This document shows, piece by piece, positions 13,300 to 36,340 of a stretch of 64,000 nt of DNA. The notes beneath the pieces were generated by a model. That model was not told the origin of the DNA. It ran no database searches and was given only the letters and a program-made list of their open reading frames with translations. Position 1 is the stretch's first letter. Each line of letters opens with the position of its first letter. The translations under genes were made by a program, and so were the position numbers. This DNA comes from a virus (taxonomy: Duplodnaviria > Caudoviricetes): IMG/VR virus record IMGVR_UViG_3300021185_002017; one strand, given 5' to 3'.

Positions 13300-13314
13300 A
13301 ACACTATTTATCTA

Positions 13315-22013: not shown

Positions 22014-24071
22014 TTATTTAGAAGTAGCAATAAAAACACCGTCCCAATCTTTAGGCAGTGTTTGAGTCTTTTGAAATTCGCAACGCTCAATCCACATATC
22101 ATAATAACCTTTCATCTTACCTTCAAAGGCATCGTGTAGTTGCTCACATAATATAATTGCTTTATCAAAGTTTTGTTTACGATATTGCATGTGCATATCT
22201 TCGTGCATTTGTCTTGCTTTTGCATACTTGCCTACTTTAATATCAAGTACTGTGTATATTTCGATGCCCACAGTCTTTCCTTTTACTGCTAGGTCATCTA
22301 CTTTAAGATAAAAGAATTTATTATGTGTGTGCTTGTAAGTGTCTCCTCCCACTAACAACAAGCAACCATATTCCTTACACTTACTTTCTATTCTCGCGGC
22401 AGTACTAACTGCGTCTCCGAGTATGTCATATGAATGTCTGGCAGTGGAGCCCATCTCCCCAATATAACCGAGCCCAGTATTAATACCAGCACCCATACCA
22501 ACTGGCGGTCTACCTTCTTTAACAATTTTATCATTGAATTCCTCTACTGCTCTAAGCATTAGTAATCCTGTGTTCACAGCACTTGCAGGATGATCTGGGT
22601 CGTCCATTGGTGCATTGTGTATGTGCATACTTGCATCGCCAATATACTTAATAACCATTCCGTCTGCATCAAGTATAGGCTGTGTAATGGCATCCATGTA
22701 ACCATTCATTATTTTTGTTAGTCCTTGAACATCATCACCAAAACTTTCTCCTAGTGGGGTGAAGCCACGCAAATCTGAGAAGCATATACTAACTTCTTTT
22801 TTCATACCTTGTTTAATTAAGTCTGGATTTTCTTGCAACATTCTAACAACTGTAGGAGAGGCATATCCAGCAAATTGTTTCTGTATTTCTGCTCGTAGTT
22901 TAAACTGTATCCAAAAGTTATTAAAACTTGCCTGTGTAAAGATTAAGAATGCACTTATTGCAGGAAAAGTAGCATCAAATAAAACTAAGTTTGCTGTATA
23001 AGAATGTACACTATAATATACAATTCCGCCTATAATAGTGACTGTAGTTACTAATCCTGCCCATATAGGCAACTTATATATTGCTAAAGCAATTAATATC
23101 ATGCTCAACAACGCACACAGAAGCTCTGTAAGCAACGATAATTCAGATCTGGTAATGTTACTCCCGTCTATAAAATTCTGTAGCATAGACGCTTGTATTT
23201 GCTGTGGTAGTACGTTGCCTCTAGGTGTGGGTACCGGATTGGCAACGCCTTCTGCACTCACACCCACAATAACGAACTTTCCGCCTAAGTTAGGCAGTTC
23301 ACTCGCATCTACATATTCGTGTTCTTCAAAAGTGTTATTAAATCGTATATATGCTGTACCATTTGGTGTTGTTACTATTGGTTCAAAGGGTGGTACTGCA
23401 AACTCTTGTATTCCTATTTCACTAGTCTTTAAAATGTAACTAGGTTTTTGTGTATAAGTCCTTAACATCTCAATAGCAAAACTAGGATATATCTTTCCCT
23501 CTACTCCAATCGCTAGTGGGTAAGTTCTTGTTTGGTTATCAGGCTGAGGAGCACTTGCTACTACTCCAATACCTGCGGCTACACTTTCTAGTGGTTCAAT
23601 ATTCGTTACGAGATTCGGCCATGTCAGCAAGTAGTTGGTAGCGGGTACTGGGCCTATCGTTCCTGTACCAATGTGCGGACCTGTACTCTTTACTCCTCTG
23701 GAAGATGGGGTTTGGGATAAAACTATGCCGTTGTCTTTCATCCAACTGGAAAGTACTGGATCTCCTCCAAACCGGTCCGTCTCCGGAAACATCACTGTTA
23801 GCCCTATCATTCCTGCATTCTTGTTTCTCAGGTCTGATATTAGTTGTGCAAAATTCTGTCTTGGCCATGGCCATTGTCCCCACTGTTGTAGGCTTTTTTC
23901 GCCAATGTTTATTACTACAACTTCGTTACTTTGTTTAACTTCATCTAATTGTTGGTAGTAATCGAATGTCTGTGAACGCAGACTTTGAACTGGTGTTGGG
24001 TCAGCAACTTTGAGAGCTGTAAGTAATACTATAGATATTGCTACGGCCCAGCCGCTGTATAACCATTTCAT
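22014..24071 (-). CDS. CHASE2-domain class III adenylate/guanylate cyclase
   Basis: N-terminal TM, CHASE2 signature (GQWPWPRQNFAQL, FPETDR, PVPTP), three TM helices, cyclase core FSDLRGFT, KYIGDA, GINTG, YDILGDAVSTAARIE. Confidence 0.92.
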   Translation of the reverse strand: MKWLYSGWAVAISIVLLTALKVADPTPVQSLRSQTFDYYQQLDEVKQSNEVVVINIGEKSLQQWGQWPWPRQNFAQLISDLRNKNAGMIGLTVMFPETDRFGGDPVLSSWMKDNGIVLSQTPSSRGVKSTGPHIGTGTIGPVPATNYLLTWPNLVTNIEPLESVAAGIGVVASAPQPDNQTRTYPLAIGVEGKIYPSFAIEMLRTYTQKPSYILKTSEIGIQEFAVPPFEPIVTTPNGTAYIRFNNTFEEHEYVDASELPNLGGKFVIVGVSAEGVANPVPTPRGNVLPQQIQASMLQNFIDGSNITRSELSLLTELLCALLSMILIALAIYKLPIWAGLVTTVTIIGGIVYYSVHSYTANLVLFDATFPAISAFLIFTQASFNNFWIQFKLRAEIQKQFAGYASPTVVRMLQENPDLIKQGMKKEVSICFSDLRGFTPLGESFGDDVQGLTKIMNGYMDAITQPILDADGMVIKYIGDASMHIHNAPMDDPDHPASAVNTGLLMLRAVEEFNDKIVKEGRPPVGMGAGINTGLGYIGEMGSTARHSYDILGDAVSTAARIESKCKEYGCLLLVGGDTYKHTHNKFFYLKVDDLAVKGKTVGIEIYTVLDIKVGKYAKARQMHEDMHMQYRKQNFDKAIILCEQLHDAFEGKMKGYYDMWIERCEFQKTQTLPKDWDGVFIATSK

Positions 24072-24076
24072 ATCAA

Positions 24077-24084
24077 TATTTATC
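24077..24084 (-). promoter_or_regulatory. T4-like late promoter (GATAAATA) for the cyclase
   Basis: Exact motif 5 nt upstream of the cyclase start. Confidence 0.6.
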
Positions 24085-24589
24085 GTATTCTATTGCAGTT
24101 ATTTCTGGCTTCGGATAGCACATCATAGTTATTTGCAATCACATGAGCCATTATAAAATTTGGTGCGTATAAGTCGTTGTTTTGAATATCACGCCATTGT
24201 GAATATAATGCAGGACCTAGTAATATTAACTTTAGAAATATTATTTCTTCTGTTGAAGGTCGTTTGCCTAATAAGGGATTTAATTCTTCTACACAGTCAA
24301 ATTTTAATGCCTCTTTAGTTGTGTATACATCTAATAATTGTAATGTAAAAAATATTGTCCATTGCACATTATCAGCTCGTTCGAATGTAAAGTCTAAATC
24401 AAGTTTAGGGTGGGTGAGATGCTTAGGCATATCTTTGTACTGTTCTAATAGTACGCCGTTTATTGTTTCTTCACTGTAGCAACAATAATTACCTGCGTAT
24501 ATAAGTTGTTTTTGAGTTAATGTTAAACTGAGGGCATTTGTACTAAAAAATAAAAGCGACAACGATGCTATTATCATTGCCGCTTTCAC
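24080..24589 (-). CDS. Secreted/membrane hypothetical protein
   Basis: Signal-peptide-like N-terminus; LQLLDVYTT...ELNPLLG segment; GTG start. Confidence 0.65.
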   Translation of the reverse strand: MKAAMIIASLSLLFFSTNALSLTLTQKQLIYAGNYCCYSEETINGVLLEQYKDMPKHLTHPKLDLDFTFERADNVQWTIFFTLQLLDVYTTKEALKFDCVEELNPLLGKRPSTEEIIFLKLILLGPALYSQWRDIQNNDLYAPNFIMAHVIANNYDVLSEARNNCNRIR

Positions 24590-24590
24590 C

Positions 24591-24713
24591 TTACTCGCAC
24601 TCCTGAGGATTTTCAGAACAATATTTTTTGATTTGTTGAATTAACATTTTTATATCGCTCTCATTATCTGCCTTCTTCTCCTTTCGTGGAGACAAAAGGC
24701 TTAGTCCTTTTTT
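24591..24713 (-). other. Candidate programmed -1 frameshift site and 38 aa extension frame of the lipoprotein gene
   Basis: A_AAA_AAG (24713-24707) just before the TAA; hairpin 7 nt downstream (24699-24671); the -1 frame is open to TAA at 24593-24591. Confidence 0.65.
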
Positions 24714-25003
24714 GGTTCTTGCAATTCGTCAGTTTGTTTATCGACTTCCTGTTCTACAGTTTCTATAACACCACTAGCTGCTTCCGCTGCTGTAGTTGCT
24801 ATGCTAGAAGCATCTTTTAAAACCGCTTGACTTACAGTCGAAACGGCATTAACAGATCCATCTACTACGCCGGTTGTGAACTCTTTACCACCTTCAATAA
24901 CTGCACCAACTGATGCACATGACGGTAAAAATACCACCAAACTGAGACCTGCTAGAATAGTGAATAGTCTATTCATAAGGTTCTCCTTAGTTTGTTGTAA
25001 CAT
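24701..25003 (-). CDS. Small lipoprotein
   Basis: Signal peptide with lipobox-like FLPSC; probable start at MNRLF (after GGAGA RBS); GGTAAATA late-type motif at 25025-25032. Confidence 0.7.
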   Translation of the reverse strand: MLQQTKENLMNRLFTILAGLSLVVFLPSCASVGAVIEGGKEFTTGVVDGSVNAVSTVSQAVLKDASSIATTAAEAASGVIETVEQEVDKQTDELQEPKKD

Positions 25004-25052
25004 GCGGCATGCATATTACAATAGTATTTACCTTATATAAAGGCAAGTTATC

Positions 25053-25169
25053 TTAGATTAGAAGTAATCCTATTGCAAAGCCTATGTTTAAGCCTATAGA
25101 ACAAACTAATATAAAGTCCTTATTAAACGAATATGGTACTAGTTCTACTATTTCTTTGTTATGTGCCAT
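25053..25169 (-). CDS. 38 aa single-TM micro-protein (not in ORF track)
   Basis: AGGAATAGG RBS then MAHNKEIVELVPYSFNKDFILVCSIGLNIGFAIGLLLI*; fills the gap after the curlin gene. Confidence 0.55.
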   Translation of the reverse strand: MAHNKEIVELVPYSFNKDFILVCSIGLNIGFAIGLLLI

Positions 25170-25176
25170 CCTATTC

Positions 25177-26265
25177 CTAGTTGCTACCATTCACTGTTAT
25201 TGAACACCCTGCTGTGTTAAAACATATACCTGTGATGCTGTAAGTGCCTGCTGATGATGTCATGTTTTGTATTAAGTCAAGTGTGTAAGCACCAGTACCG
25301 TATGTTAAATCTATGGTTGCTGTTGCGTTATTGCTGCCTCGTTGGTTAACATCAACACTATGTCCATCACCATCTAACACAATGTCTGCCCATTTAACAC
25401 CACCGTTGCCTCGTTGATATAAGTCTACGGTGTTATTATCACCGCCTATTTCTATAAAGCCATCGTGTCCTGCTTTGCCCATTTGTGTATGCTCTACACT
25501 ATTACTATCGCCAGTAATAATATTTGCTAAATGATGTCCTGCTCCGCCGCCTGATCTGTTTGTATCTGTTTGATAACTTGCTAACGAATTATTATCTCCA
25601 GTCACAGTCCAGTATGCTTCGTGGTCTCCTACTTCGTCTGAATCTGTTGTGCCGTCGGCATGTTTGCCTTGCCATACTCTGAGATCGTTGTTATCTGATC
25701 CGGAACCCATAATAGCTCTAATATAATTGTCATCCTGCCCGTTACCCTGGAAAGCATCAATGCTATTATTGCTACCAGAAAATACTTCAAGGTAAGCATA
25801 ATGGTCATCGCCTTCTTGCCAAAGTTGTATTTCATTATCAGTGTTAGAATTACTAGTACCTGATTCTAACCAAGCATAATTGTTATCACCCATTACATCT
25901 ACTTTTAAATCAGTATAATTACCATGGGCATCTAATAATACTGCGTTGTAATCACCTTCTGTGTAGGCATCTAATGTTTGATTACTACCACTACTCCATA
26001 TACCTAAAACATTATTGTGGCCTCTTTGTTGTAGGCTTACTGTTTTTGTGGCGCCATTAAGAATGGCAGCTGAATTTGCGTTGTCTAATTTTCTAATTGT
26101 ATTGCCGGTCCCTGCTTGTAATATATCCATTGTTAGGTTATCACCTGTCTGATCTATATTTATTTCGTTGTCTTGGCCGTAGCATGCCTGTGCAGTAAAG
26201 AACATTAATATAACTAGTATACCTAAATGTGTTCCTGTTATTTTGTTTAATATATTTTTAATCAT
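25177..26265 (-). CDS. Curlin-repeat protein (CsgA/CsgB-like, long form)
   Basis: Signal peptide then many N-x-h-x-h-x-Q-x-G repeats (NEINIDQTG, NEIQLWQEG, NTVDLYQRG, HSVDVNQRG); probable start 26265 overlapping the FecR stop (track start 26295). Confidence 0.75.
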   Translation of the reverse strand: MIKNILNKITGTHLGILVILMFFTAQACYGQDNEINIDQTGDNLTMDILQAGTGNTIRKLDNANSAAILNGATKTVSLQQRGHNNVLGIWSSGSNQTLDAYTEGDYNAVLLDAHGNYTDLKVDVMGDNNYAWLESGTSNSNTDNEIQLWQEGDDHYAYLEVFSGSNNSIDAFQGNGQDDNYIRAIMGSGSDNNDLRVWQGKHADGTTDSDEVGDHEAYWTVTGDNNSLASYQTDTNRSGGGAGHHLANIITGDSNSVEHTQMGKAGHDGFIEIGGDNNTVDLYQRGNGGVKWADIVLDGDGHSVDVNQRGSNNATATIDLTYGTGAYTLDLIQNMTSSAGTYSITGICFNTAGCSITVNGSN

Positions 26266-27445
26266 TTTGTGTAATTTTAATGTATATGCCTTCACACTGG
26301 TTCAAGCAAAACACTGTTTCTCCCGTATCTGAATCGTTAATAATAATTTGAGCCATAGAGCCTTGTGCTAATTTTATTCCTATTTTATTATTAACTTCTC
26401 TTAGAAAAAATACCTTACCATCGTATTCTGGAAAATTATTAAACTGACTAGTAGGGTCTCGACCCCATTGTTGGCTTATTAATTTATCTCCAGAGCCACT
26501 TGACAGTTTTTCTTCTGCAAGTGCATCTATATCGTCACTTAAAACTTCAAGTAAATCGTTTAAAAACTCTACATTTAAATAATCTATATCTAACTCAGAA
26601 AATTCAAATTGTCGATCTGTATCTTCTTCTAATACTGCTTGGTCTAAAAAATCTTGGTCTAATCCATCAAAATCTAATAACCCAGCATCTCCTTTTAATT
26701 GTTCCTGTTGTTCTTCTTGTGCTACAGTAATCTCTTTTGGTTCTGATACAATGAACATGTTGTCTATCATATCTAAATTTAAGTTTACTAACTTAACTGG
26801 TGGAGTTGGTATAGTTTCAAATGTGCTTACCATTACTGCTTGGTATGCTTCATCTAATATTTGTGTACCACCATCATTAGTAACTGTTATACTTCCACTC
26901 GGAGCACAGCCTTCTTCTAATTTAACTTTGTCTGTACAATCTTCGTCTGGCAATAATATTACCAAACTTCTACCCAGTTCATCTACTGTGGTAGTAAAAT
27001 CTGTTCCCCTAATACCAATACTGGCTGTGGGGGTTTGTATTTGTATATTTTCTCTTGCTACAAGTCCTAATCCACCTGTGGCAAATCTTGCTGTTCCTGA
27101 CACAAAATTTAAAGCCATTTTACTTTTATTAGGGTCTGGATCAAATACATACTCGTTAATTTCCATGTATGTATTTTCTGTTAGACTAACTTGCGTATCG
27201 TCTACAAATTTAATCTTTAATCTACCGTTAGCAGTTTCTACTTCGTCCATGCTAACAATATTTGTTTCTAGTTCTGCTTGTAATGTTTCGCCTGTAGTTC
27301 TTGAAATCTTACCTACTGAACCAGATTGTTCAAATATGCCGCCAATATTCTCAGCGGCACTTATTGAACTTGTTGCAACGCAACTAAGTAGCAAAAGCCA
27401 CTTAATCTTGCTGAACAACGCTAACCGATGCATTTTCACTATCAA
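26258..27445 (-). CDS. FecR-domain periplasmic protein
   Basis: Signal peptide; DEVET.NGRLKIKFVDDTQVSL.EN...IQTPTASIGIRGTDF FecR signature; acidic C-half. True start is probably downstream of the track start. Confidence 0.85.
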   Translation of the reverse strand: MIVKMHRLALFSKIKWLLLLSCVATSSISAAENIGGIFEQSGSVGKISRTTGETLQAELETNIVSMDEVETANGRLKIKFVDDTQVSLTENTYMEINEYVFDPDPNKSKMALNFVSGTARFATGGLGLVARENIQIQTPTASIGIRGTDFTTTVDELGRSLVILLPDEDCTDKVKLEEGCAPSGSITVTNDGGTQILDEAYQAVMVSTFETIPTPPVKLVNLNLDMIDNMFIVSEPKEITVAQEEQQEQLKGDAGLLDFDGLDQDFLDQAVLEEDTDRQFEFSELDIDYLNVEFLNDLLEVLSDDIDALAEEKLSSGSGDKLISQQWGRDPTSQFNNFPEYDGKVFFLREVNNKIGIKLAQGSMAQIIINDSDTGETVFCLNQCEGIYIKITQND

Positions 27446-28196
27446 TTTCTAAATTGATAACTCCTGCACATGCTGGTGTGCATGTAGCAGTCATATTTTG
27501 TATCAGTTGGAAGTCTCCATCAGAGCCTTCGTATTCTACAATCATGCTGTTACCGTCATTACTAGCCTGCTTTGTTGCGAATGCATTGTCGTCACCTGTA
27601 ATATCAAAGTTCCAAACATTGTTACTTGAATCTATTACTATACCTGATAAAGTCTGTGTGCCGGTGGCATTATTGCCAGAACCTGCAGCCCATACTTTGC
27701 TGTTAGTAAAACTAGTTGAAAAGTCATTCCTGTCACCTAGTATAATTAGATCCATGTTGTTGCTTTCAGCAGCTGCGTTACCACCAATATCTATATCAAA
27801 TAAGTTCGTAGAACCTACTACGTTTGATAAGATATCGTTATAATCAGCACTACCTGAAGCACCCATGTTCATATCCCAAATATTACTATCGCCTTGGAAG
27901 TAAAAGTCAAGAACTGCTGTGCCGTCTCCGTCAGCAATCCATGAACCAAACATCTCGTTCAAGTTACCGTCTTGTATTAAGTCTACAATTAACGATGCAC
28001 CTGTAAGTGTTAAGTCCGCACTTTGACTTGTATTCCCGGATAAACTGTTACCGTAACCAGCCTGTAAGATAGTTAAGGTTAAGTTATCACCAACTTGTTC
28101 GATTAAAACTTCGTTATCTGCACTAGCTAAGTTCATTGATAAGAAGCAAATCGTAGCGAAGACACCTGCAATCATTTTGCGTGTAAAAGTCTTCAT
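27402..28196 (-). CDS. Curlin-repeat protein (CsgB/CsgA-like)
   Basis: Signal peptide ending ASA; DNEVLIEQVGDNLTLTILQAGYGN and further Q-x-G-x-x-N repeats; ATG at 28196 after GGAGA RBS (track start 28208). Confidence 0.7.
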   Translation of the reverse strand: MKTFTRKMIAGVFATICFLSMNLASADNEVLIEQVGDNLTLTILQAGYGNSLSGNTSQSADLTLTGASLIVDLIQDGNLNEMFGSWIADGDGTAVLDFYFQGDSNIWDMNMGASGSADYNDILSNVVGSTNLFDIDIGGNAAAESNNMDLIILGDRNDFSTSFTNSKVWAAGSGNNATGTQTLSGIVIDSSNNVWNFDITGDDNAFATKQASNDGNSMIVEYEGSDGDFQLIQNMTATCTPACAGVINLEIDSENASVSVVQQD

Positions 28197-28214
28197 TATA
28201 TTCTCCATATATGA

Positions 28215-29165
28215 TTAATCATTCTCATTATCCTCCGCTGACTTTTTGTCGTTAGAGGGGTTAGTTTTCAATTCTTCTGTGTCAGTACCGTCGACTGTAC
28301 CTAGTGTGATGTCATCCGATTCTAACGGATAATTTATTTTCCAGAAACCTCTTTCGTCTCCTTGTTCGATGAGAGCATACACTGCGGCTTCTATCGCTGA
28401 CCTGACCGCCCATGTTACACTTTCATTCTCTGTCATACCACTCTCAAGTTCGAGTAACTTTGTATCCATGTCAAGAAACTTGAATACATCACCACCCATG
28501 CCAACACTGAGAATAGTTTTGTATGTCTGTACATTTATGATCACTTCCCCAGTAAGTACACTAACTGCTCTAAGAGAAACTACAACGCTGTCTCTTCTAT
28601 ATTGATTAGTTGTGCCTATTCCTAGGTAACGAGCACCATTTCCACCGGTCTCAATATTAGAGTCGTAGCCTATGACGCCGCCTTCTAATATCACTCCCGC
28701 AAATAATAATGGTTGTACATCCTGTGGAGGAGTTTCAGCCGTAGCATAACTATCACGTGTGCTACGGATTATCTGTCTTTCTCTCACAAGATTATCTAGA
28801 CCCAACCCTCTTTCAACTACTCTGAACCAGGTTCCTTTAGGATCTGAATCAGCGCCTGCTGCTTTGAGTGCGTCTATTAATAAAGATTTTGCACCTTGGG
28901 TAACTGCGGTACTAAAACTAGCCGCCCCATCTGTACTCAATCTTTGTCCTGTTAAGTCGTCAAACTTGTATACTGCTACAATCGGTCTTGTTGCCGCTGG
29001 TGGCAGTTGTCGTAATTTTTTATATGTTGGTAGTTGTACTTCTCTAGGCTCTTCTATACATTCTAAAAAGCCAGTGTTACAGTTCGAATCGCCAGGCAGT
29101 GCCATACTTGCACAACCTGAGAACAAGCCTACACACATAAATGCAATTGCTATATTCTTAAACAT
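28215..29165 (-). CDS. csgG: Curli secretion channel lipoprotein CsgG
   Basis: Lipobox FSGC; VAVYKFDDLTGQ, FSTAVTQG, WFRVVER.GL.NL..ERQIIR, EGGVIGYDSN, ESVTWAVR.AIE.AV motifs. Confidence 0.93.
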   Translation of the reverse strand: MFKNIAIAFMCVGLFSGCASMALPGDSNCNTGFLECIEEPREVQLPTYKKLRQLPPAATRPIVAVYKFDDLTGQRLSTDGAASFSTAVTQGAKSLLIDALKAAGADSDPKGTWFRVVERGLGLDNLVRERQIIRSTRDSYATAETPPQDVQPLLFAGVILEGGVIGYDSNIETGGNGARYLGIGTTNQYRRDSVVVSLRAVSVLTGEVIINVQTYKTILSVGMGGDVFKFLDMDTKLLELESGMTENESVTWAVRSAIEAAVYALIEQGDERGFWKINYPLESDDITLGTVDGTDTEELKTNPSNDKKSAEDNEND

Positions 29166-29701
29166 TAGCCGCCTATACTTCCGATTCCGATCGGTATTTC
29201 AATTTCAGTGATACTGCCATCTGGAGCAACAATGGTAAGTCTAATTACTTCCATTCCATCTTCTGTATAAGTTCTTAAGTAAGACACTGAATTACCTTCA
29301 ATCGTAAATTCGCCTGCATCTGAGTTTGTACATGTAATAACTGTTGCTGGGTCACAGAACATACTGTCTACCAATCCTTTTGATATTTGTGCGTATATTC
29401 TAGACTCTAAATTTCTTATGAATTTGTTTATTGTGCTGTTAGCATCTTCTCGTTCTGCTTGTCTTAGTGCAGACTCGATGTCGTCTTTGATTTTATCTCT
29501 ACGACTTTTTTCTTGGTTTTCAATAGTTAGGTAATGTGCTCCAGTACCTATACCATTAAAACTTGGTGATTTAAATTTGTGAACCAATTGGTCAGCGGTT
29601 GCTGTACTTGGTAGTAATAATAGCATGCCTAATAAAATGTAGCCTAGTACTAATAAAGGCGTATCCTTTGGTCTCATTTCGTTAAGTTTCTTGTCTATCA
29701 T
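29165..29701 (-). CDS. csgF: Curli assembly component CsgF
   Basis: Signal peptide followed by LVHKFKSPSFNG, matching the CsgF N-terminal FxxPxFxG motif; coupled to csgG. Confidence 0.85.
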   Translation of the reverse strand: MIDKKLNEMRPKDTPLLVLGYILLGMLLLLPSTATADQLVHKFKSPSFNGIGTGAHYLTIENQEKSRRDKIKDDIESALRQAEREDANSTINKFIRNLESRIYAQISKGLVDSMFCDPATVITCTNSDAGEFTIEGNSVSYLRTYTEDGMEVIRLTIVAPDGSITEIEIPIGIGSIGG

Positions 29702-29704
29702 AGT

Positions 29705-29995
29705 CTATTCCTTCCTGTTTGTCTTTAACTGTTCTTCTGTTTGTGCATCCTTTATAATTTGTTCTTTGGCTTTATATTCTAAAACAACATTTACTTTTTG
29801 CTGTAATCTAATTAAATCTTGATCAAGCATACGAGTTTTGTCAATAACTTTAATTAAAGCCATGTGCATTTCTTCTAGAGCAGGATCAATTTCTTCTCCT
29901 ATGAACTTCCAGATAAAATACACAAAATATCCGAGGCCAACTGCCATCACTACAGGAAACCCGTAATCGTTAATAGCGTTGACTATTTCTTCCAT
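29705..29995 (-). CDS. Single-TM coiled-coil membrane protein (paralog of 30199-30495)
   Basis: INDYGFP + TM + heptad-rich tail. Confidence 0.7.
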   Translation of the reverse strand: MEEIVNAINDYGFPVVMAVGLGYFVYFIWKFIGEEIDPALEEMHMALIKVIDKTRMLDQDLIRLQQKVNVVLEYKAKEQIIKDAQTEEQLKTNRKE

Positions 29996-29996
29996 T

Positions 29997-30197
29997 TTAT
30001 TCTTCTTCTTCTACTAGTGTTGCCTCAATGTGTTCAAATCTGTCTATATCAAATTTCTTAAACACAATTGTGCCGTGTTTGTCTTCTGTTACAATAAATG
30101 TATCACCTGCTTTAAATCCTATTTGCTCTAATGATAATTCCTTGTCTAATTTCAATCCTTCCTCTGTAGTTTCTAGCTCATATTCTAGATATCGCAA
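29997..30197 (-). CDS. Small hypothetical protein (possibly AbrB/SpoVT-like fold)
   Basis: 66 aa, L..IGFKAGDTF.V pattern; TTG start; fold call is weak. Confidence 0.45.
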   Translation of the reverse strand: MRYLEYELETTEEGLKLDKELSLEQIGFKAGDTFIVTEDKHGTIVFKKFDIDRFEHIEATLVEEEE

Positions 30198-30198
30198 A

Positions 30199-30495
30199 CT
30201 AGTCTCTCCTTACATCAATTTTGCCTTCTTCAATGAAGTTTTCAGCTCTAGCAATACGTTCTATATCTGGTCTTAACTCTAAGGCACTACTAACTAACAT
30301 ATCAATCTTAATCATTTCGTTTGACATTGTTGTAGCTCTATTTTCTAAACTTTTACAAAAAATAGTTAAAGTTTTAACTTGCTCAACAACACCTTGGAGT
30401 ATTTGTTTTATAACTAAAAATATAAAGAAACCCATTACAATACTTCCAGCAATCGGTGCGCCAACATCGCCTATTAATTGAAAAATCTCGGTCAT
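30199..30495 (-). CDS. Single-TM coiled-coil membrane protein (paralog of 29705-29995)
   Basis: IGDVGAP + TM + heptad-rich tail; GGAG RBS; first gene of the curli cassette. Confidence 0.7.
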   Translation of the reverse strand: MTEIFQLIGDVGAPIAGSIVMGFFIFLVIKQILQGVVEQVKTLTIFCKSLENRATTMSNEMIKIDMLVSSALELRPDIERIARAENFIEEGKIDVRRD

Positions 30496-30585
30496 TGATT
30501 ACTCCGCCGTTTTATAATGTGTTCTTTACGGTGTTTACTGTATATGTGTATCACTCGTTATAGGAAGCCTACCTACCTATAACAG

Positions 30586-30593
30586 TATTTATG
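30586..30593 (-). promoter_or_regulatory. Late-type promoter (CATAAATA) heading the curli cassette
   Basis: Sits just after a strong terminator and is followed by an 8 bp hairpin (30557-30583). Confidence 0.55.
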
Positions 30594-30606
30594 ACTTTGG
30601 AGCCAT

Positions 30607-30634
30607 AAAAAAAGCACTCCGAAGAGTGCTTTTT
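30607..30634 (-). terminator. Rho-independent terminator with C(UUCG)G loop
   Basis: Same AAAAGCACTC-TTCG-GAGTGCTTTT stem-loop as 8910-8937, after the tail fibre gene. Confidence 0.85.
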
Positions 30635-30653: not shown

Positions 30654-33600
30654 TTACATCATGTTAACTAGTACTTCGATAACGCCTTCGCCGTCTTCGT
30701 TTGCACTAATTGCTTTACCAATGATATGTCCTGCTTGTGCTGCATTGTCTGCTTTAGCCATGCCGCCTTGTGCTGAAACAAGTAAGTCACCTTTAGCAAC
30801 TGGACCGCTTACCTTACAAGGTACTCGTCCTGCTAATGCTACTGGTAATGCTATACCTGGGCAGTCTGCATTCATTAAGTGAGCTGGGTCTGTTGAGATA
30901 ACACCAACTACAGCACTGTCGCTTTCGCTGTCTGTTGCTGTAATTTCTTTCTCGCCACCAAACTTAACAACTGTGCCTGCTTCGTATTCTGCATCTGCTT
31001 CATAGTTCTCAGCCAAGTCAGCGTATCTTGCTGAAGTTGCTGTTGCACTAATTGTACCAGCACTAAAGTTACCTGAGCTGTCTCTTGCTACAACTTTACT
31101 TGCTGTGTTAGCACTTGTTGCATCAACTGATACTGTATCTGCTGCTACTACAATGTAAGATCCTGCACCAACATTTAGTGTTGCGCCACCGCTTGTAGCA
31201 CCACCTGTTAAACCAGATCCTGCTGTAACTGCTGTAATGTCACCAACTGTTGTTGAATAACCGTAACTTAAAATCTTGTCTTCAATAGCTGCTGAAGTCA
31301 TTAACGATGTATCGTTGTTTGCAAAACTCTCTGTACTTATTTGTAGTGTACTACCTGCAAAGTGAGAAGTTGTTAAACCACTTACATTTAATGTTGCTGT
31401 ACCACTTGAAGCACCGCCACTTAAACCAGATCCTGCTGTAACACCAGTGATGTAACCTGTATCTGTTAAACTAATAGCACCTGTGCTATCATCATATGTA
31501 ATACCAGTTCCGCCACTAAACAATCCTCTGATTGTAGCATCACTTCTATCTGAGTCTGTGAAACTAATTACACCAGTTGTGCTGTTGTATGAAATGTCAC
31601 CACTTGCACTAATTGCTGCTCTAGCTCTTGCAGTTGTATGGTAAAGGTTAGTTGAACCTTCACTAACACCGTCTGTATCACTCTGTGTATAACTAATAAC
31701 ACCTGTTCCTGAGTTATAAGAAAGTGAACCAGTTGCACTAATTGCTGCTCTAGCTCTTGCTGTTGTATGATATAAGTTACTTGAACCTTCTGAAACATCG
31801 TCAGTGTCGCCACTTAGTTCGCTTAAAGCATCTTTTGTATCAACTTGTGCATCAACATAAGTTTTTACTGCTAACTGTGATGGTGCTAAACTATCTGAAG
31901 CACTTGCAAAAGAGTCATCATCGTCAATTGCTGCTTGTACTCTAGCATCTGCTAATGTATTAACATATGAATCAGTAATCGAAACGCTGTCTGCTGCTAC
32001 AGTAATACCATTTCCGCCTACAACATTCAATGTAACTGCACCACTAGTGCCGCCACCTGTTAAACCATTACCTGCTGTTACTGCTTCAATGTCACCTGCA
32101 TCGTTAGTGAAACTAATTACACCAGTTGTACTGTTGTATGAAATGTCACCACTTGCACTAATTAAAGCTCTAACTTCGCCATCTGTTCTTTCAGTAAAAC
32201 TCATTACACCAGTTGAACTGTTGTATGCTAAGTCACCACTTCCACTAATTGCTGCTCTTGCATCACCGTCTGCGTATTGAGTAATAGTTGTTGCAATAGC
32301 ACCGTCTGTTACAGTAATACCTGTACTAGCACTAAAGTGAGCTCTTACTTCTGAAGCACTTGGACCTGTGTAAGTAATAACACCTGTTCCTGAGTTGTAT
32401 GCTAAACTTCCGTCTCCACCAGCATCTGTTACACTGATATGAGCTCTTGCTTCACTTGCACTTGGACCTGTGTAAGTAATTACACCAGTTGTGCCGTTAT
32501 ATGCTAAACTTCCGTCTCCGCCTGCGTCTGATACTGAAACAGCACCTCTTGCTCTTGCATTTGTGAAGTATAAGTTACTTGAACCTTCAACTAAGTCGTC
32601 AGTTTCAGTAGCAATCTTAAAGTTTGTAGAACCATCATTTGTAAACTGCCATTGGCCTTCACTTTCGTCCCATATAAGACTTACATCTGCACTTGAACCT
32701 CTGTTTACAGTTAAACCTGCATCTTCACTTGGAGCACCACTTGCGTCTCTGTTTAATTCAATAACGCTATCTGCTAATGCAGTAATTTGTGAATTAACAA
32801 TAGTTTGTGTACCACTAATTGTAACGTTACCGTTAAACACTGCATCGTCACTGTATGTCTTAGCACCTGCTACTGTTTGAGCACCACTTGTTCTTACTAC
32901 TGTTGTATCAACATCTACTGTTCCTGCACTGTAATCAATACCATCGCCGCCTACTAAGTGAGCGTCAATTCTTGCTTCAGTTTCTGCTGCACTAACACCT
33001 GTAAATGTAAGTACACCTGTGCTGTTGTTATATGCTAATGAACCATCACCACCTGCGTCAGTTACACTAAGGTGAGCTCTTACTTCAGTAGCACTTGGCC
33101 CTGTAAATGTAAGTACACCAGTTGAACTGTTATATGCTAATGAACCATCACCACCTGAGTCTGTTACGCTGACAGCTGCTCTAGCTCTTGCATCTGTATA
33201 ATACTGATTTGAACTACCTTCTGCTACTGCGTCACTATCAACTGCATCAACGTATGCTTTAGTAGCTGCGTCTTGTGCTTCAACTGGATCATCAACATTA
33301 TTAATGTTGCTACTGTTCATGTTAATGTTTGAACCAAACTTAACACCGCCTGTTGAACTGATTGTTTTAGCTGCTGTAAGTACAACATCTGACTTGAGCT
33401 GGATTGAACCACCTGATGTCATTTCCAAGTCACCGGAGCCAGTAGTTAAAATACTAATGTTCTGGTTATTGTCTGCACTAAATTGAATTGTTCCTGAATT
33501 ATCTTCAAGTACTTTTTGTCCGTTAACGTAAAGTGATCCTGGACCAACATATACATCTTTCCATACTTTGGAAGCACTACCTAATGAGTATGTATTGCTG

Positions 33601-33887
33601 ACACTAGGTATCAAATTACCTTCTAAGTCTTCGTAGTCTATTGCAAGTGTTGCTGCACCATCTGCTGCTCCACCTGTTAAACCTGAGCCTGCTACAACCG
33701 ATGTAATATCACCTGTTGCCGCAGCTACTACCTCATCGTACTTTGCTAATCGTGTGCCACCAGCAGTAGACCCGTCGTGGACACGAATTGTATCCAAATC
33801 GGTATCGACCGTGATTTCACCTACTAAGCCTGTAAATGAGCTGTGTTGTGCGGTCGTACCGCGTCTAAACTGAATAGCTGTTGCCAT
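30654..33887 (-). CDS. Tail fibre/spike protein with Mtd_N-like N-terminus, internal repeats and C-terminal autoproteolytic chaperone (peptidase G2-like)
   Basis: IQFRRGTT...GEITVDTD...VHDG.TAGG; repeats EGSSNLY.T.ARAR and D.GGDGSLAYN; C-terminus ARYADLAENY...GVIST.PA.LMN...VALAGRVPCKV; GATAAATA at 33935-33942. Confidence 0.85.
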   Translation of the reverse strand: MATAIQFRRGTTAQHSSFTGLVGEITVDTDLDTIRVHDGSTAGGTRLAKYDEVVAAATGDITSVVAGSGLTGGAADGAATLAIDYEDLEGNLIPSVSNTYSLGSASKVWKDVYVGPGSLYVNGQKVLEDNSGTIQFSADNNQNISILTTGSGDLEMTSGGSIQLKSDVVLTAAKTISSTGGVKFGSNINMNSSNINNVDDPVEAQDAATKAYVDAVDSDAVAEGSSNQYYTDARARAAVSVTDSGGDGSLAYNSSTGVLTFTGPSATEVRAHLSVTDAGGDGSLAYNNSTGVLTFTGVSAAETEARIDAHLVGGDGIDYSAGTVDVDTTVVRTSGAQTVAGAKTYSDDAVFNGNVTISGTQTIVNSQITALADSVIELNRDASGAPSEDAGLTVNRGSSADVSLIWDESEGQWQFTNDGSTNFKIATETDDLVEGSSNLYFTNARARGAVSVSDAGGDGSLAYNGTTGVITYTGPSASEARAHISVTDAGGDGSLAYNSGTGVITYTGPSASEVRAHFSASTGITVTDGAIATTITQYADGDARAAISGSGDLAYNSSTGVMSFTERTDGEVRALISASGDISYNSTTGVISFTNDAGDIEAVTAGNGLTGGGTSGAVTLNVVGGNGITVAADSVSITDSYVNTLADARVQAAIDDDDSFASASDSLAPSQLAVKTYVDAQVDTKDALSELSGDTDDVSEGSSNLYHTTARARAAISATGSLSYNSGTGVISYTQSDTDGVSEGSTNLYHTTARARAAISASGDISYNSTTGVISFTDSDRSDATIRGLFSGGTGITYDDSTGAISLTDTGYITGVTAGSGLSGGASSGTATLNVSGLTTSHFAGSTLQISTESFANNDTSLMTSAAIEDKILSYGYSTTVGDITAVTAGSGLTGGATSGGATLNVGAGSYIVVAADTVSVDATSANTASKVVARDSSGNFSAGTISATATSARYADLAENYEADAEYEAGTVVKFGGEKEITATDSESDSAVVGVISTDPAHLMNADCPGIALPVALAGRVPCKVSGPVAKGDLLVSAQGGMAKADNAAQAGHIIGKAISANEDGEGVIEVLVNMM

Positions 33888-33946
33888 TTTATATTCCCCT
33901 AAATCTTTGTTAGAAAATGATTTTTATTTAACACTATTTATCATTA

Positions 33947-35341
33947 TTACTTAATTAGCCACCTTTCTAAGTCATCTGAGATATCAGCCAACTTGATCCA
34001 TGACTCGCCTGTTACTTGTCCCTTACACACAATTGCACATCCGTGTGTTATCACTGGTGCCCACTCGTTGCGTACTGTCCTACTTTTATATTCCTGTTGT
34101 CTTTCGAATTCTGGCGTTTCGTGTCCTGTGTACATATCTTCGCCGTTTGTGTGAGTTTCATACACTACTGTATTTTCTGGTTGCAGAAAATTTCTAGGTA
34201 GTGTAGAGTTGAAATGACTCTCAATAGTATGGTCTCTGTTTTCCCATTCCATTATGTGTACTCCAAGCTCTTTTTTATTCCCACGCTCATCAGCGTAATA
34301 TTTGTCTTGCCAGTAATTCCAGCCTGCTCCGCCGATCACTGCTGGGTTTTTAGAAACCACCCCAACAATGTCGTCACCTTCACCTGCAGTTACTAATTTG
34401 CCTTTAGGGCTAAGTGCAACTACAAATCCGGTTCTATCTTCTCTGCGAGGATTACCGTCTCCCCACTCAAACATTTCTGCATAACCTGAATTGTTACTGT
34501 GTACTGCACCGTCGCTAAATACTGCTCCTGTGCCGTCTACTGTAAATACTTTTTGTGCATAAGGATCGCCGTTTTCCATACTTTGATTCTTTGCTTCAAT
34601 AAAATTGTATGATTTATTATTGGTTGCCTGCGTTTCGATATCTATCATGTTACCATGAAAGAATCTACTAGGTGCATAACCGTGGAATACATTTCTGTTA
34701 TTATTAGGCTGATACACATTCAATCTACTTTGTGTATCGTCGTGCATAAGTCCTAATGACAAATCGCCTGCTCCAGTTAAATTTATTCCCTGTCTATTTT
34801 TTCTACTAACGCCTCTAAATAAAAATGCATTGCTATCATCAGCATCACTTTCAATTAGCAAACCTCTTACAGTTCCTTTACCGTCAACTGGCAAAGATGC
34901 TTCACTGTTATAATTAGATCTAATATGAACACTACCTGGCCCAATTGCTTTTGGTGACTGTGTTCCTATTCCAAGTGCTCCGCCTTTGTTAAAGCTCTGC
35001 ATTACAAGTTCACCTTTAGTAACATTAAGGCCATCTTTAGTGCCACTGAATCTAAATGTTTCAGGCCCTGCAAGTACTAATTCCGTTTTGCTTAGTGTTG
35101 CTTCCACTTTGTCCTTTGTTTTTTCAATGTGATCAAGTCTTTTGTTTTCTGCAATTACTTGTTCTCTAATTTCTTTATATAACTCTTTCTTTAATTCTGC
35201 TTTAAATTCTGCTAACGCATCTGCTGTAGTAGGTTCCTTCTTTTTTCTTGCGGTTCCTATTGGCTGCGTTTCTTGTTTTTTCTCTACCTTTTCTACCTTT
35301 TTCTTTACTACTGGTTGTGTGTCTTTTTTAACTCTTGGCAT
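33947..35341 (-). CDS. Virion appendage protein with C-terminal peptidase G2-like domain
   Basis: GYAEMFEWGDGNP..EDR.G.VV...DIVGVVS..P pattern, like phi29 appendage chaperones; highly charged N-terminus. Confidence 0.65.
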   Translation of the reverse strand: MPRVKKDTQPVVKKKVEKVEKKQETQPIGTARKKKEPTTADALAEFKAELKKELYKEIREQVIAENKRLDHIEKTKDKVEATLSKTELVLAGPETFRFSGTKDGLNVTKGELVMQSFNKGGALGIGTQSPKAIGPGSVHIRSNYNSEASLPVDGKGTVRGLLIESDADDSNAFLFRGVSRKNRQGINLTGAGDLSLGLMHDDTQSRLNVYQPNNNRNVFHGYAPSRFFHGNMIDIETQATNNKSYNFIEAKNQSMENGDPYAQKVFTVDGTGAVFSDGAVHSNNSGYAEMFEWGDGNPRREDRTGFVVALSPKGKLVTAGEGDDIVGVVSKNPAVIGGAGWNYWQDKYYADERGNKKELGVHIMEWENRDHTIESHFNSTLPRNFLQPENTVVYETHTNGEDMYTGHETPEFERQQEYKSRTVRNEWAPVITHGCAIVCKGQVTGESWIKLADISDDLERWLIK

Positions 35342-35365
35342 GTGTGTGTCCTATTGCTATTATGT

Positions 35366-36340
35366 TTAACTTACTATTGCTCTGTCTGTGATTCTTCTCC
35401 AGTTACTGCCATCGCTAAATGCCATAACTGCTCCACCAGTCTCATCGCTTACATAAATCATTTGACCTGCTACCGATGCGTCTGGTAAATTTGCTACTAC
35501 ATAAGAATCACTTGTTGGACCAAATGTATCCTTGATGTACTCAAAGTCGCCAACTGTTGCTGACTCCTCTACTGTACCAAAACTGATTATCATATTTGCT
35601 GTATCTGCTACAGAGCCGTAATCTGAAATAGGTTCAAATAATACGCCTTGTACGACACCAGTTTTTAATGTACTTGAACTTTTATCGTATGTTAATGCAT
35701 CGTTGCCTCCGAAAGAACCACTGTCGTTAAACTGTATATCAGTGTTTCCACCTTCTGGGTTTGCACTAACTGTTGTGAACGAAAGTGCTCCACTTCCATC
35801 TGTAACAACTACTTGACCTGCTGAGCCATCTGCTGTTGGAAGTGAGTATGCATTATTGATTGTGGTTGCACTACCTTGTACCTTAAAGACTTCGTTAGTG
35901 TTGTCTGCGTCATATACTTTAAATATAGGATCACTACTACTGCTGTTATCTCTTATGCGTACTTGAGTTGCTGTACCGTTTGAATGTCTTAAATCTAGTG
36001 CTGAACCAGAGAACTGAAGGCTTGGATTTGTTCCTAATCTTAAATTACCGTTAACAAATAATCTTTCATTAGATGCTGTTGAACCTATGCTAACTGTATC
36101 GTTTGTGCTGTCAACAAATAAAGTACCGTCATCAACATTTAATTCAGTTAAAGTTTCACCTATATTCTTCCAACTTGTTTCGTAGATATCTAACGTTGCG
36201 TTAGCAGAGTCAAAGAATAAGTCACCGTTTGATATATCAGCAGACGGTCTTGTACCTGTTGATATTTTGCTACCACTGTCTTTCTTTCCGATCTTGAATT
36301 CAGATGTAGTGGTACCTTTGAAATTTCCAAAAATTGCCAT
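35366..36340 (-). CDS. Tail fibre-associated structural protein
   Basis: G/S/T-rich beta-type sequence (LPTADGSAGQVVVTDGSG.LSF; C-terminal GQMIYVSDETGG...FSDG.NWRR); GATAAATA at 36414-36421. Confidence 0.7.
   Translation of the reverse strand: MAIFGNFKGTTTSEFKIGKKDSGSKISTGTRPSADISNGDLFFDSANATLDIYETSWKNIGETLTELNVDDGTLFVDSTNDTVSIGSTASNERLFVNGNLRLGTNPSLQFSGSALDLRHSNGTATQVRIRDNSSSSDPIFKVYDADNTNEVFKVQGSATTINNAYSLPTADGSAGQVVVTDGSGALSFTTVSANPEGGNTDIQFNDSGSFGGNDALTYDKSSSTLKTGVVQGVLFEPISDYGSVADTANMIISFGTVEESATVGDFEYIKDTFGPTSDSYVVANLPDASVAGQMIYVSDETGGAVMAFSDGSNWRRITDRAIVS

Follow-up and report, generated by a model that had tools for sequence, protein, structure and literature searches.

A viral type VIII secretion (curli) gene module with FecR and CHASE2-cyclase genes in an uncultured marine jumbo phage lineage

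We analysed a 64,000 nt stretch of DNA (hereafter, the window) from a tailed virus of the Caudoviricetes (IMG/VR record IMGVR_UViG_3300021185_002017), which contains a cassette of curli-type genes together with genes for a FecR-domain protein and a CHASE2-containing nucleotide cyclase. The listing of open reading frames (ORFs) shows 12 co-oriented and tightly packed ORFs arranged head to tail on the minus strand from position 30495 to 22014 (~8.5 kb), with spacings of -44 to +111 nt between them; a preliminary description of this DNA had counted 13 genes, but its own list also sums to 12. The flanking genes encode phage virion proteins (tail fibre, tail sheath, portal and a sheath-like protein), with the tail-fibre gene on one side and sheath-like genes on the other, which places the block inside the virion region, as previously described. 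The products of the 12 ORFs, with their lengths in amino acids (aa) and the E-values of their profile matches, are as follows; three of them lie in an island that varies among relatives.

30199..30495, minus strand: small membrane protein A, 98 aa (phrog_18771, 8e-24)
29997..30197, minus strand: acidic 66-aa ORF between A and B, without an export signal
29705..29995, minus strand: small membrane protein B, 96 aa, paralogue of A (phrog_18771, 4.4e-27)
29165..29701, minus strand: CsgF homologue, 178 aa, with signal peptide (Pfam CsgF, 8.7e-10, above the cut-off)
28215..29165, minus strand: CsgG outer-membrane lipoprotein channel, 316 aa, with lipobox Cys18 (Pfam CsgG, 1.4e-46)
27402..28208, minus strand: curlin-like protein A, 268 aa, with signal peptide and C-terminal Cys pair
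26258..27445, minus strand: secreted FecR-domain protein, 395 aa, with signal peptide (Pfam FecR, 3.8e-11)
25177..26295, minus strand: curlin-like protein B, 372 aa, with signal peptide and ~15 strand-turn-strand repeats (Curlin_rpt, 9e-14)
25053..25190, minus strand: 45-aa membrane micro-protein, variable island
24701..25003, minus strand: lipoprotein, 91-100 aa, with lipobox LPSC, variable island
24080..24589, minus strand: exported 169-aa protein, variable island (DUF5658, 2.1e-4, below the cut-off)
22014..24071, minus strand: fusion of a CHASE2 sensor and a class III nucleotide cyclase, 685 aa (CHASE2, 2.8e-36; Guanylate_cyc, 1.5e-15)

This cassette is not a new system, and the window represents a third carrier lineage, a jumbo phage, of a known curli module. 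The full module was described in mSystems in 2022 as one or two small genes labelled "HK", followed by genes for CsgF, CsgG, CsgA/B, FecR, a second CsgA/B and an adenylate cyclase, carried by HTVC023P-type podoviruses and by pelagimyophages and transferred between viral families; the same work reported an alphaproteobacterial affinity, expression in metatranscriptomes and an ocean-wide abundance, with viral curli proteins amounting to ~0.1% of the assembled ocean viral proteins (PMC9599517). Two other works saw the cluster as a partial curli operon without csgA/B and did not mention FecR or the cyclase (PMC7029224; PMC9004378). The statement that csgF and csgG alone had been reported from marine phages is thus outdated by the 2022 account, which includes the curlins, FecR and the cyclase. 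In the GenBank records of the Pelagibacter phage HTVC008M (KC465899) and the OM43 phage Melnitz (MZ577097) the gene order is csgF, csgG, a curlin gene, FecR (Melnitz), a second curlin gene (Melnitz) and adenylate cyclase, and tblastn identified counterparts in the same order, with 25-51% identity, for eight window proteins, including the two small membrane proteins. The order is also the same in four T4-like contigs (L083, L085, L086 and L091) and in every sufficiently long jumbo contig (21 contigs), such that the gene order is conserved in relatives belonging to different phage lineages. The four T4-like cassettes, all of them complete, were found in metagenome-assembled genomes of bacteria; the phage genes on their flanks, for a clamp loader, a DnaB helicase and CobS/CobT-type proteins, show them to be contigs of T4-like phages placed in bacterial bins.

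The carrier belongs to an uncultured lineage of marine jumbo myophages and is neither a podovirus nor a T4-like pelagimyophage. The tail sheath of the window shares 42% identity with its counterpart in the jumbo phage PA5oct and one of the related contigs reaches 339,794 bp (91% complete); the lineage has no cultured member in the phage collection, and megablast of the block against cultured phages produced no match. A scan of IMG/VR with the cyclase matched 171 viral contigs, 80 of which were fetched and compared. The right flank of the window, including a NUDIX gene and a sheath-like gene on the opposite strand, was common to all 80, and a 208-aa ORF from this flank was present in all but two of them. 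Since order and flanks recur across dozens of independent viral contigs, we can rule out that the block is an assembly chimera or a host insert, which the preliminary description had named as grounds for refutation. Additionally, at least 96% of the sampled words of the 8.5-kb block were present in 14 marine DNA runs from 14 studies, 11 of these runs being flagged as possible sources of this very DNA.

In a tree of CsgG, 17 sequences from jumbo phages formed a single clade (SH-aLRT 96) and the T4-like sequences fell into at least two clades. This topology would fit a single transfer between lineages, in either direction, after which the module was long retained by vertical descent. A genome scan with the CsgG alignment retrieved true bacterial matches without FecR, cyclase or small membrane proteins, and none of the cellular loci searched contained the full module. 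Among cultured phages, tblastn of CsgG found only HTVC008M, the Melnitz phages and one 1.5-kb fragment filed under a Salmonella phage. This fragment (OR851715.1, 1,499 bp, filed as 'Salmonella phage S.Kent 1-2-1') encodes a CsgG-like protein with 42% identity and is probably derived from the host rather than a phage curli gene.

The channel components retain the residues expected from their E. coli counterparts. Residues 44-283 (~240) of CsgG align with the solved structures of E. coli CsgG (E = 2.6e-47), and the window sequence AASFSTAV aligns to ASNFSTAV of the E. coli protein, its constriction loop. A phmmer search of CsgF against the PDB missed E. coli CsgF and a direct alignment was used instead, in which F43, P46, F48 and G50 are invariant with the CsgF proteins of E. 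coli and Granulosicoccaceae. These residues are at the N-terminus of mature CsgF, where the motif FxxPxFxG is retained; in the published CsgG:CsgF structures, this N-terminal segment sits inside the CsgG barrel. The phage CsgF proteins also contain a helical insert that E. coli CsgF lacks, and it was proposed that phage CsgF may have lost the binding to CsgG (PMC9004378).

Curlin B was modelled with AlphaFold2 (AF2) at a mean predicted local distance difference test (pLDDT) score of 76, as a run of ~30 short strands. The top match of this model in an exhaustive structural search was CsgA from Pontibacter korlensis (8C50; Z 29.4), with 295 aligned residues at a root mean square deviation of 8.9 Å, followed by generic beta-helices with Z 18.2 at best; Foldseek against the PDB and AFDB/Swiss-Prot returned weak beta-helix rows only. 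Curlin A scored 14.4 bits against Curlin_rpt, below the cut-off of 20.7, and 11 of its 16 orthologues matched the same profile at E <= 0.1 (best, 6.5e-5). The two curlin families are homologous by hhalign (99.7%, E 1e-25), and both have an N-terminal DNxIxIxQxGDxL segment and an invariant pair of cysteines at the C-terminus (C358 and C364 in curlin B). The preliminary description had made its curlin assignment depend on matches to curlin profiles and on a beta-solenoid fold; curlin B shows both, the fold being that of the AF2 model, and curlin A is homologous to it.

Sequence variation is not evenly distributed along the cassette. In the nearest relative (contig L060), the cyclase is 97%, FecR 94%, CsgG 94% and curlin A 91% identical to the window proteins, whereas curlin B is only 37% identical (309 aa vs 372 aa in the window) and retains a nearly identical signal peptide; the window curlin B is 45% identical to that from Melnitz. 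Likewise, the genes between curlin B and the cyclase vary from contig to contig, spanning from 0.7 to ~5 kb, and among relatives they include genes for lipoproteins, DUF5658-like proteins, a weak cytochrome c-like protein and an FNR-like reductase. The stretch from mature curlin B to the cyclase is therefore a swap-prone variable island: the identities to L060 and the differing contents of the island indicate that curlin B and its neighbours are exchanged, whereas the channel, FecR and cyclase are kept. Of the three island genes in the window, the one for the 45-aa micro-protein occurs in some relatives only, that for the lipoprotein probably starts at ATG 24975, preceded by AAGGAG, and that for the 169-aa protein has homologues in many jumbo relatives. 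The islands at L024:6753-9321 and L009:9264-9980 encode a weak cytochrome c-like protein of 456 aa, a 408-aa protein of no named family and an FNR-like NAD/FAD reductase.

The long signal peptide of the window CsgF (29599-29701, MIDKKLNEMRPKDTPLLVLGY...) was also found heading curlin B in six related phages (L009:6617-7720, L021:5805-6896, L016:7346-8455, L027:7932-8930, L029:6883-7794 and L023:4483-5343). The presence of a CsgF-type signal peptide on curlin B suggests recombination at the boundaries of signal peptides.

The FecR-domain protein consists of beta domains (residues ~31-235), an acidic linker of low confidence (~253-318, ~65 residues) and a small C-terminal beta domain; its AF2 model has a pLDDT of 72 and is confident in the N-terminal beta region. 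Residues 64-229 of the model match the C-terminal cell-surface signalling domain of PupR (6OVK; Z 15.8), the model also matches the anti-sigma protein 4M0N (Z 13.8), and residues 31-128 match the anchoring domain of the MpIBP adhesin (5IX9; Z 9.3). We considered whether the protein could be a FecR-type anti-sigma factor and rejected this identity: it has neither an anti-sigma domain nor a transmembrane segment beyond the signal peptide, and Pfam revealed no extracytoplasmic function (ECF) sigma factor or TonB-dependent transducer in the cassette, so that only the periplasmic fold is common to both. The link of the phage protein to iron is, in consequence, one of name. The protein has more than 5,900 relatives in a protein collection clustered at 90% identity; when the FecR profile was run against 1.84 billion representatives, the best 150 rows all had E < 1e-39, the two that were inspected lie on phage-like contigs and no cellular ancestors were reached.

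In the cyclase, Pfam delimits CHASE2 to residues 15-325, with hydrophobic segments at 4-23 and ~309-378, and the catalytic part matches adenylate cyclases from the PDB with E-values down to 1.6e-21. The metal-binding residues D433 and D479, the substrate-specifying K475 and the transition-state R560 are invariant in 86 of 86 homologues. The clade of the window enzyme has D549, giving a Lys/Asp adenine pair, and in it D549 and Ser556 form an Asp/Ser combination where the remaining homologues (38 of 86) combine Ser or Thr at the D549 position with Asn at the Ser556 position. From these residues, cAMP (cyclic AMP) is the likely product, with a caveat on the rate. A predicted complex between the periplasmic domain of CHASE2 (24-322) and FecR (31-240) had a score of 0.01 (mark, 0.32). 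Profile searches with hidden Markov models, structure models and conserved synteny together support the composition first proposed for the block, that is, a secretion channel with its putative amyloid cargo and a cyclase facing the periplasm.

In bacteria, genes for FecR-domain proteins are known to occur next to CHASE2 sensor genes (PMC5192318), and we found cellular relatives of both phage proteins in alphaproteobacteria. Of 401 sampled alphaproteobacterial genomes, 78 contained matches to the FecR profile at E <= 1e-18, most of them in the N-termini of very large proteins. A closer look was taken at three small genomes (1.3-1.6 Mb; fetched loci with 32-36% G+C). In one locus (L113), a CHASE2-PP2C sensor is two genes away from a 903-aa protein with a FecR N-terminus. 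The other two genomes (G329 and G013) contain a TolC-like gene, a gene for an 830-918-aa protein with a FecR N-terminus, an ABC transporter and an HlyD gene and, 6-8 kb further on, genes for two small proteins that bind cyclic nucleoside monophosphates (cNMP) and for a full-length CHASE2 cyclase, which is 28-29% identical to the phage enzyme over residues 12-685 (E 1e-87 to 1e-93). The next two genes in G329 encode a cNMP_binding-HlyD fusion and a C39-ABC exporter (Pfam), and G013 has ORFs that match these in size and order. These loci extend over ~18-22 kb (L116/L118, G329:C3:1-22000; L114/L119, G013:C4:616000-642000) and could possibly represent cyclic-nucleotide-gated secretion. As a lead drawn from two or three loci, the occurrence of cellular proteins of the FecR and cyclase types beside secretion genes and cyclic-nucleotide readers fits with a phage pair that controls or reports secretion.

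The two small membrane proteins upstream of csgF belong to the same phrog_18771-type family. Protein A comprises an acidic N-terminal tail, a single transmembrane helix and a predicted helical, coiled-coil-like tail, and is 47-49% identical to ORFs upstream of csgF in HTVC008M and Melnitz; protein B is 43-45% identical to its counterparts in Melnitz and HTVC008M. The corresponding genes were labelled "HK", for histidine kinase, in the published module (PMC9599517), an identity that we examined. Across 20 aligned family members, G12 and P14 are the sole invariant residues and no His is conserved; there was no Pfam match at E <= 0.1, a profile search against the PDB returned only coiled-coil noise (E >= 0.1) and the proteins are only 96-98 aa long, such that the histidine kinase label is not supported by the sequences. 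Their neighbours in the ESM Atlas are virus-only clusters. The 66-aa ORF that separates the two genes is absent from the T4-like loci compared, and among the fetched loci it was matched only in L060 (36%).

A candidate control element precedes the first gene of the cassette:

30585..30633, minus strand: terminator hairpin (30633-30606) after the tail-fibre gene, followed by the late-promoter-like motif CATAAATA (30593-30586)

By sequence reading, CATAAATA is 91 nt upstream of the first cassette gene. Its core, ATAAATA, which we set beside the T4 late promoter TATAAATA for comparison, occurs 18 times in the minus strand of the window and three times in the plus strand; 15 of the 18 minus-strand copies are intergenic, almost all of them 6-91 nt upstream of a gene start. 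All 17 related loci that were checked, from both jumbo and T4-like phages, have the motif ahead of their first cassette gene, and GATAAATA is 6 nt upstream of the ATG of the cyclase. Over the whole window, at least six minus-strand genes have [G/A]ATAAATA exactly 6 nt ahead of their ATG (for example at 13311, 6429, 4052, 1629, 42321 and 24083), and other genes have it 24-91 nt ahead. Were this sequence to act as a late promoter of the T4 type, several late mRNAs would have little or no leader.

Six metatranscriptome runs contain 27-50% of the sampled words of the block. Contigs assembled from four of the runs, which give neither strand nor level, cover the region from the small membrane proteins to CsgF, the junction between CsgG and curlin A, and the lipoprotein gene, and the adjacent fibre gene is many times deeper than the cassette. 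This uneven cover argues for RNA rather than carry-over of DNA, and the cassette appears to be expressed with the late genes. Within the island, the contigs from two runs stop at 25006 and continue into adapter sequence, a TTGCCT ... TAATAT-like pair is located upstream of the lipoprotein gene (stretch examined, 24975-25052) and in run X17 no other cassette gene is covered as deeply; the lipoprotein gene may be transcribed on its own. In the tail-fibre genes (31444-35684), metatranscriptome joints skip ~1.3-1.4 kb (31795 to 33184; 32528 to 33871) and there are many loose ends, both being probably strain variants or shared repeat modules.

The window has the same genes in the same order as the pelagiphage type VIII secretion module, and likewise lacks CsgE, CsgC and CsgD (PMC9599517). 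It differs in its carrier, a jumbo myophage lineage with related contigs of up to 340 kb, in the location of the cassette inside the virion gene region, in the addition by this lineage of an island of three to six extra exported genes between curlin B and the cyclase, and in the Asp/Ser combination of its cyclase clade. The E. coli csgBAC/csgDEFG system has in common with the window the CsgG channel, the N-terminal FxxPxFxG of CsgF and beta-solenoid subunits made of curlin repeats; conversely, the window lacks CsgE, CsgC and CsgD, contains FecR, the CHASE2-cyclase and the small membrane proteins, and is encoded by a virus. Its curlins are also much longer than those from E. coli (268 and 372 aa, ~15 repeats), possess a C-terminal Cys pair and are closer in architecture to the Bacteroidota CsgA (8C50). 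As in the window, a secreted FecR-domain protein is encoded beside a CHASE2 sensor in the Burkholderia BiofilmReg operon and in PA4035/PA4036 (PMC5192318), although their output is a histidine kinase or a PP2C phosphatase instead of a cyclase; additionally, there is no LysM in the window, and the bacterial examples show no link to CsgG/CsgF. The FecR/PupR anti-sigma regulators share the periplasmic FecR fold (6OVK, 4M0N), whereas the phage protein is soluble in the periplasm and has an acidic linker and an extra C-terminal domain.

We lean, though not strongly, towards the cassette being the jumbo-phage form of the viral curli (type VIII secretion) module, in which fibres would be combined with FecR-CHASE2 signalling through cAMP. 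The lipoprotein CsgG would form the outer-membrane channel, capped by CsgF, and the two Sec-exported beta-solenoids with curlin repeats would cross CsgG to build amyloid-like fibres on the outside of the infected cell. The soluble FecR-fold protein would be the partner, in the periplasm, of the CHASE2 domain of the inner-membrane class III cyclase, and a cue from the envelope or related to the fibres could then lead to cAMP production and be read by cNMP-binding proteins of the host. The likely benefit for the phage would be an altered cell surface, resulting in aggregation or 'sibling capture', or in shielding against superinfection. Several observations weigh against this proposal. Nobody has so far observed the fibres, and cultures infected with Melnitz did not clump (PMC9004378). 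CsgE and CsgC/CsgH had no Pfam match among the cassette ORFs; their lack is not disqualifying for type VIII secretion because CsgC, CsgD and CsgE are missing from the alphaproteobacterial and viral modules too (PMC9599517). As for the signalling part, Ser556 replaces the usual transition-state Asn in the window cyclase and in 48 of its 86 homologues, and its activity may for this reason be reduced or altered; the cyclase gene was scarcely covered by the metatranscriptome contigs; and the 340-kb, 91%-complete relative encodes no cNMP-binding protein, such that any reader of the signal would be derived from the host, as would be the CRP that the preliminary description suggested might be rewired.

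In a rival reading, the FecR-fold protein would replace CsgE, acting at or through CsgG with its N-terminal domain held in the periplasm like the retention module of type I adhesins, and would report fibre or secretion status, or contact with the outside, to CHASE2; cAMP would then govern secretion that depends on cNMP in the host, or when the infection ends. The matches of FecR to the MpIBP anchoring domain and to the PupR domain, which was solved in complex with an outer-membrane transducer, point in this direction, as do the linker that parts the N- and C-terminal beta domains and the position of the gene between two curlin genes. The best cellular homologues found are also the N-termini of the 830-918-aa proteins from type I secretion loci, 6-8 kb from a full-length homologue of the CHASE2 cyclase and from the cNMP_binding-HlyD fusion. 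Nevertheless, this is pure analogy from the two or three bacterial loci inspected, and we regard the idea as unlikely. Equally unlikely is its extended form, a trans-envelope signalling device built by the phage in which FecR, on or through CsgG, might report secretion, fibre state, or a superinfecting phage or neighbour cell to the cyclase, cAMP might act on cNMP-binding secretion components or regulators of the host and so time the end of infection, and curlin B would be an exposed, diversifying tip.

Somewhat less probable is the hypothesis, advanced for Melnitz (PMC9004378), that CsgG, either alone or together with CsgF, has been repurposed as a gated pore in the envelope and sets the time of lysis in a pinholin- or secretin-like manner, the curlins not being fibre subunits. 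The cultures without clumping, the helical insert in phage CsgF, the lack of a CsgE gate among the cassette ORFs and a late promoter motif, which suits a late function, are all in keeping with such a pore. However, the lipobox and signal peptide of CsgG direct it to the outer membrane and pinholins act in the inner membrane, the residues aligned to the N-terminus of E. coli CsgF are retained, and the conservation over three phage lineages of two curlin genes with export signals is hard to explain without secretion. An ungated CsgG pore could instead admit nutrients or cofactors (iron or siderophores, going by the name FecR) while the cyclase tunes host metabolism, an idea raised in PMC7029224 and PMC9599517 with which the absence of CsgE agrees. 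We consider it improbable: it leaves two conserved curlins and CsgF unexplained, and FecR has neither an anti-sigma domain nor a transmembrane segment, with no TonB-dependent transducer or ECF sigma factor nearby. The location of the block between the tail-fibre gene and the sheath-like genes, with a late-type motif, could also suggest an amyloid-like appendage of the virion, as contemplated in the preliminary description. This we hold to be very improbable, because CsgF, CsgG, the curlins and FecR, like the 100-aa lipoprotein and the 169-aa protein, all have N-terminal export signals, with Sec signal peptides and lipoboxes that target the host envelope, and because in the fetched T4-like loci the module sits among replication and metabolic genes, outside the virion module; PMC7029224 likewise places it between the replication and structural modules.

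Our analysis adds to the published module a jumbo carrier, the match of the curlin B model to Pontibacter CsgA, a variable island with an exchangeable curlin B, the CsgF motif, the lack of support for the kinase label and the neighbourhoods of the cellular relatives. The last four of these points sharpen the study of HTVC008M and Melnitz, which are culturable carriers. Throughout a third phage lineage, unrelated to the other carriers, the module occupies the same fixed genomic position, which makes a stronger case for the eight genes being selected as a unit, and the existence of this third carrier lineage argues that the module is not specific to SAR11 biology.

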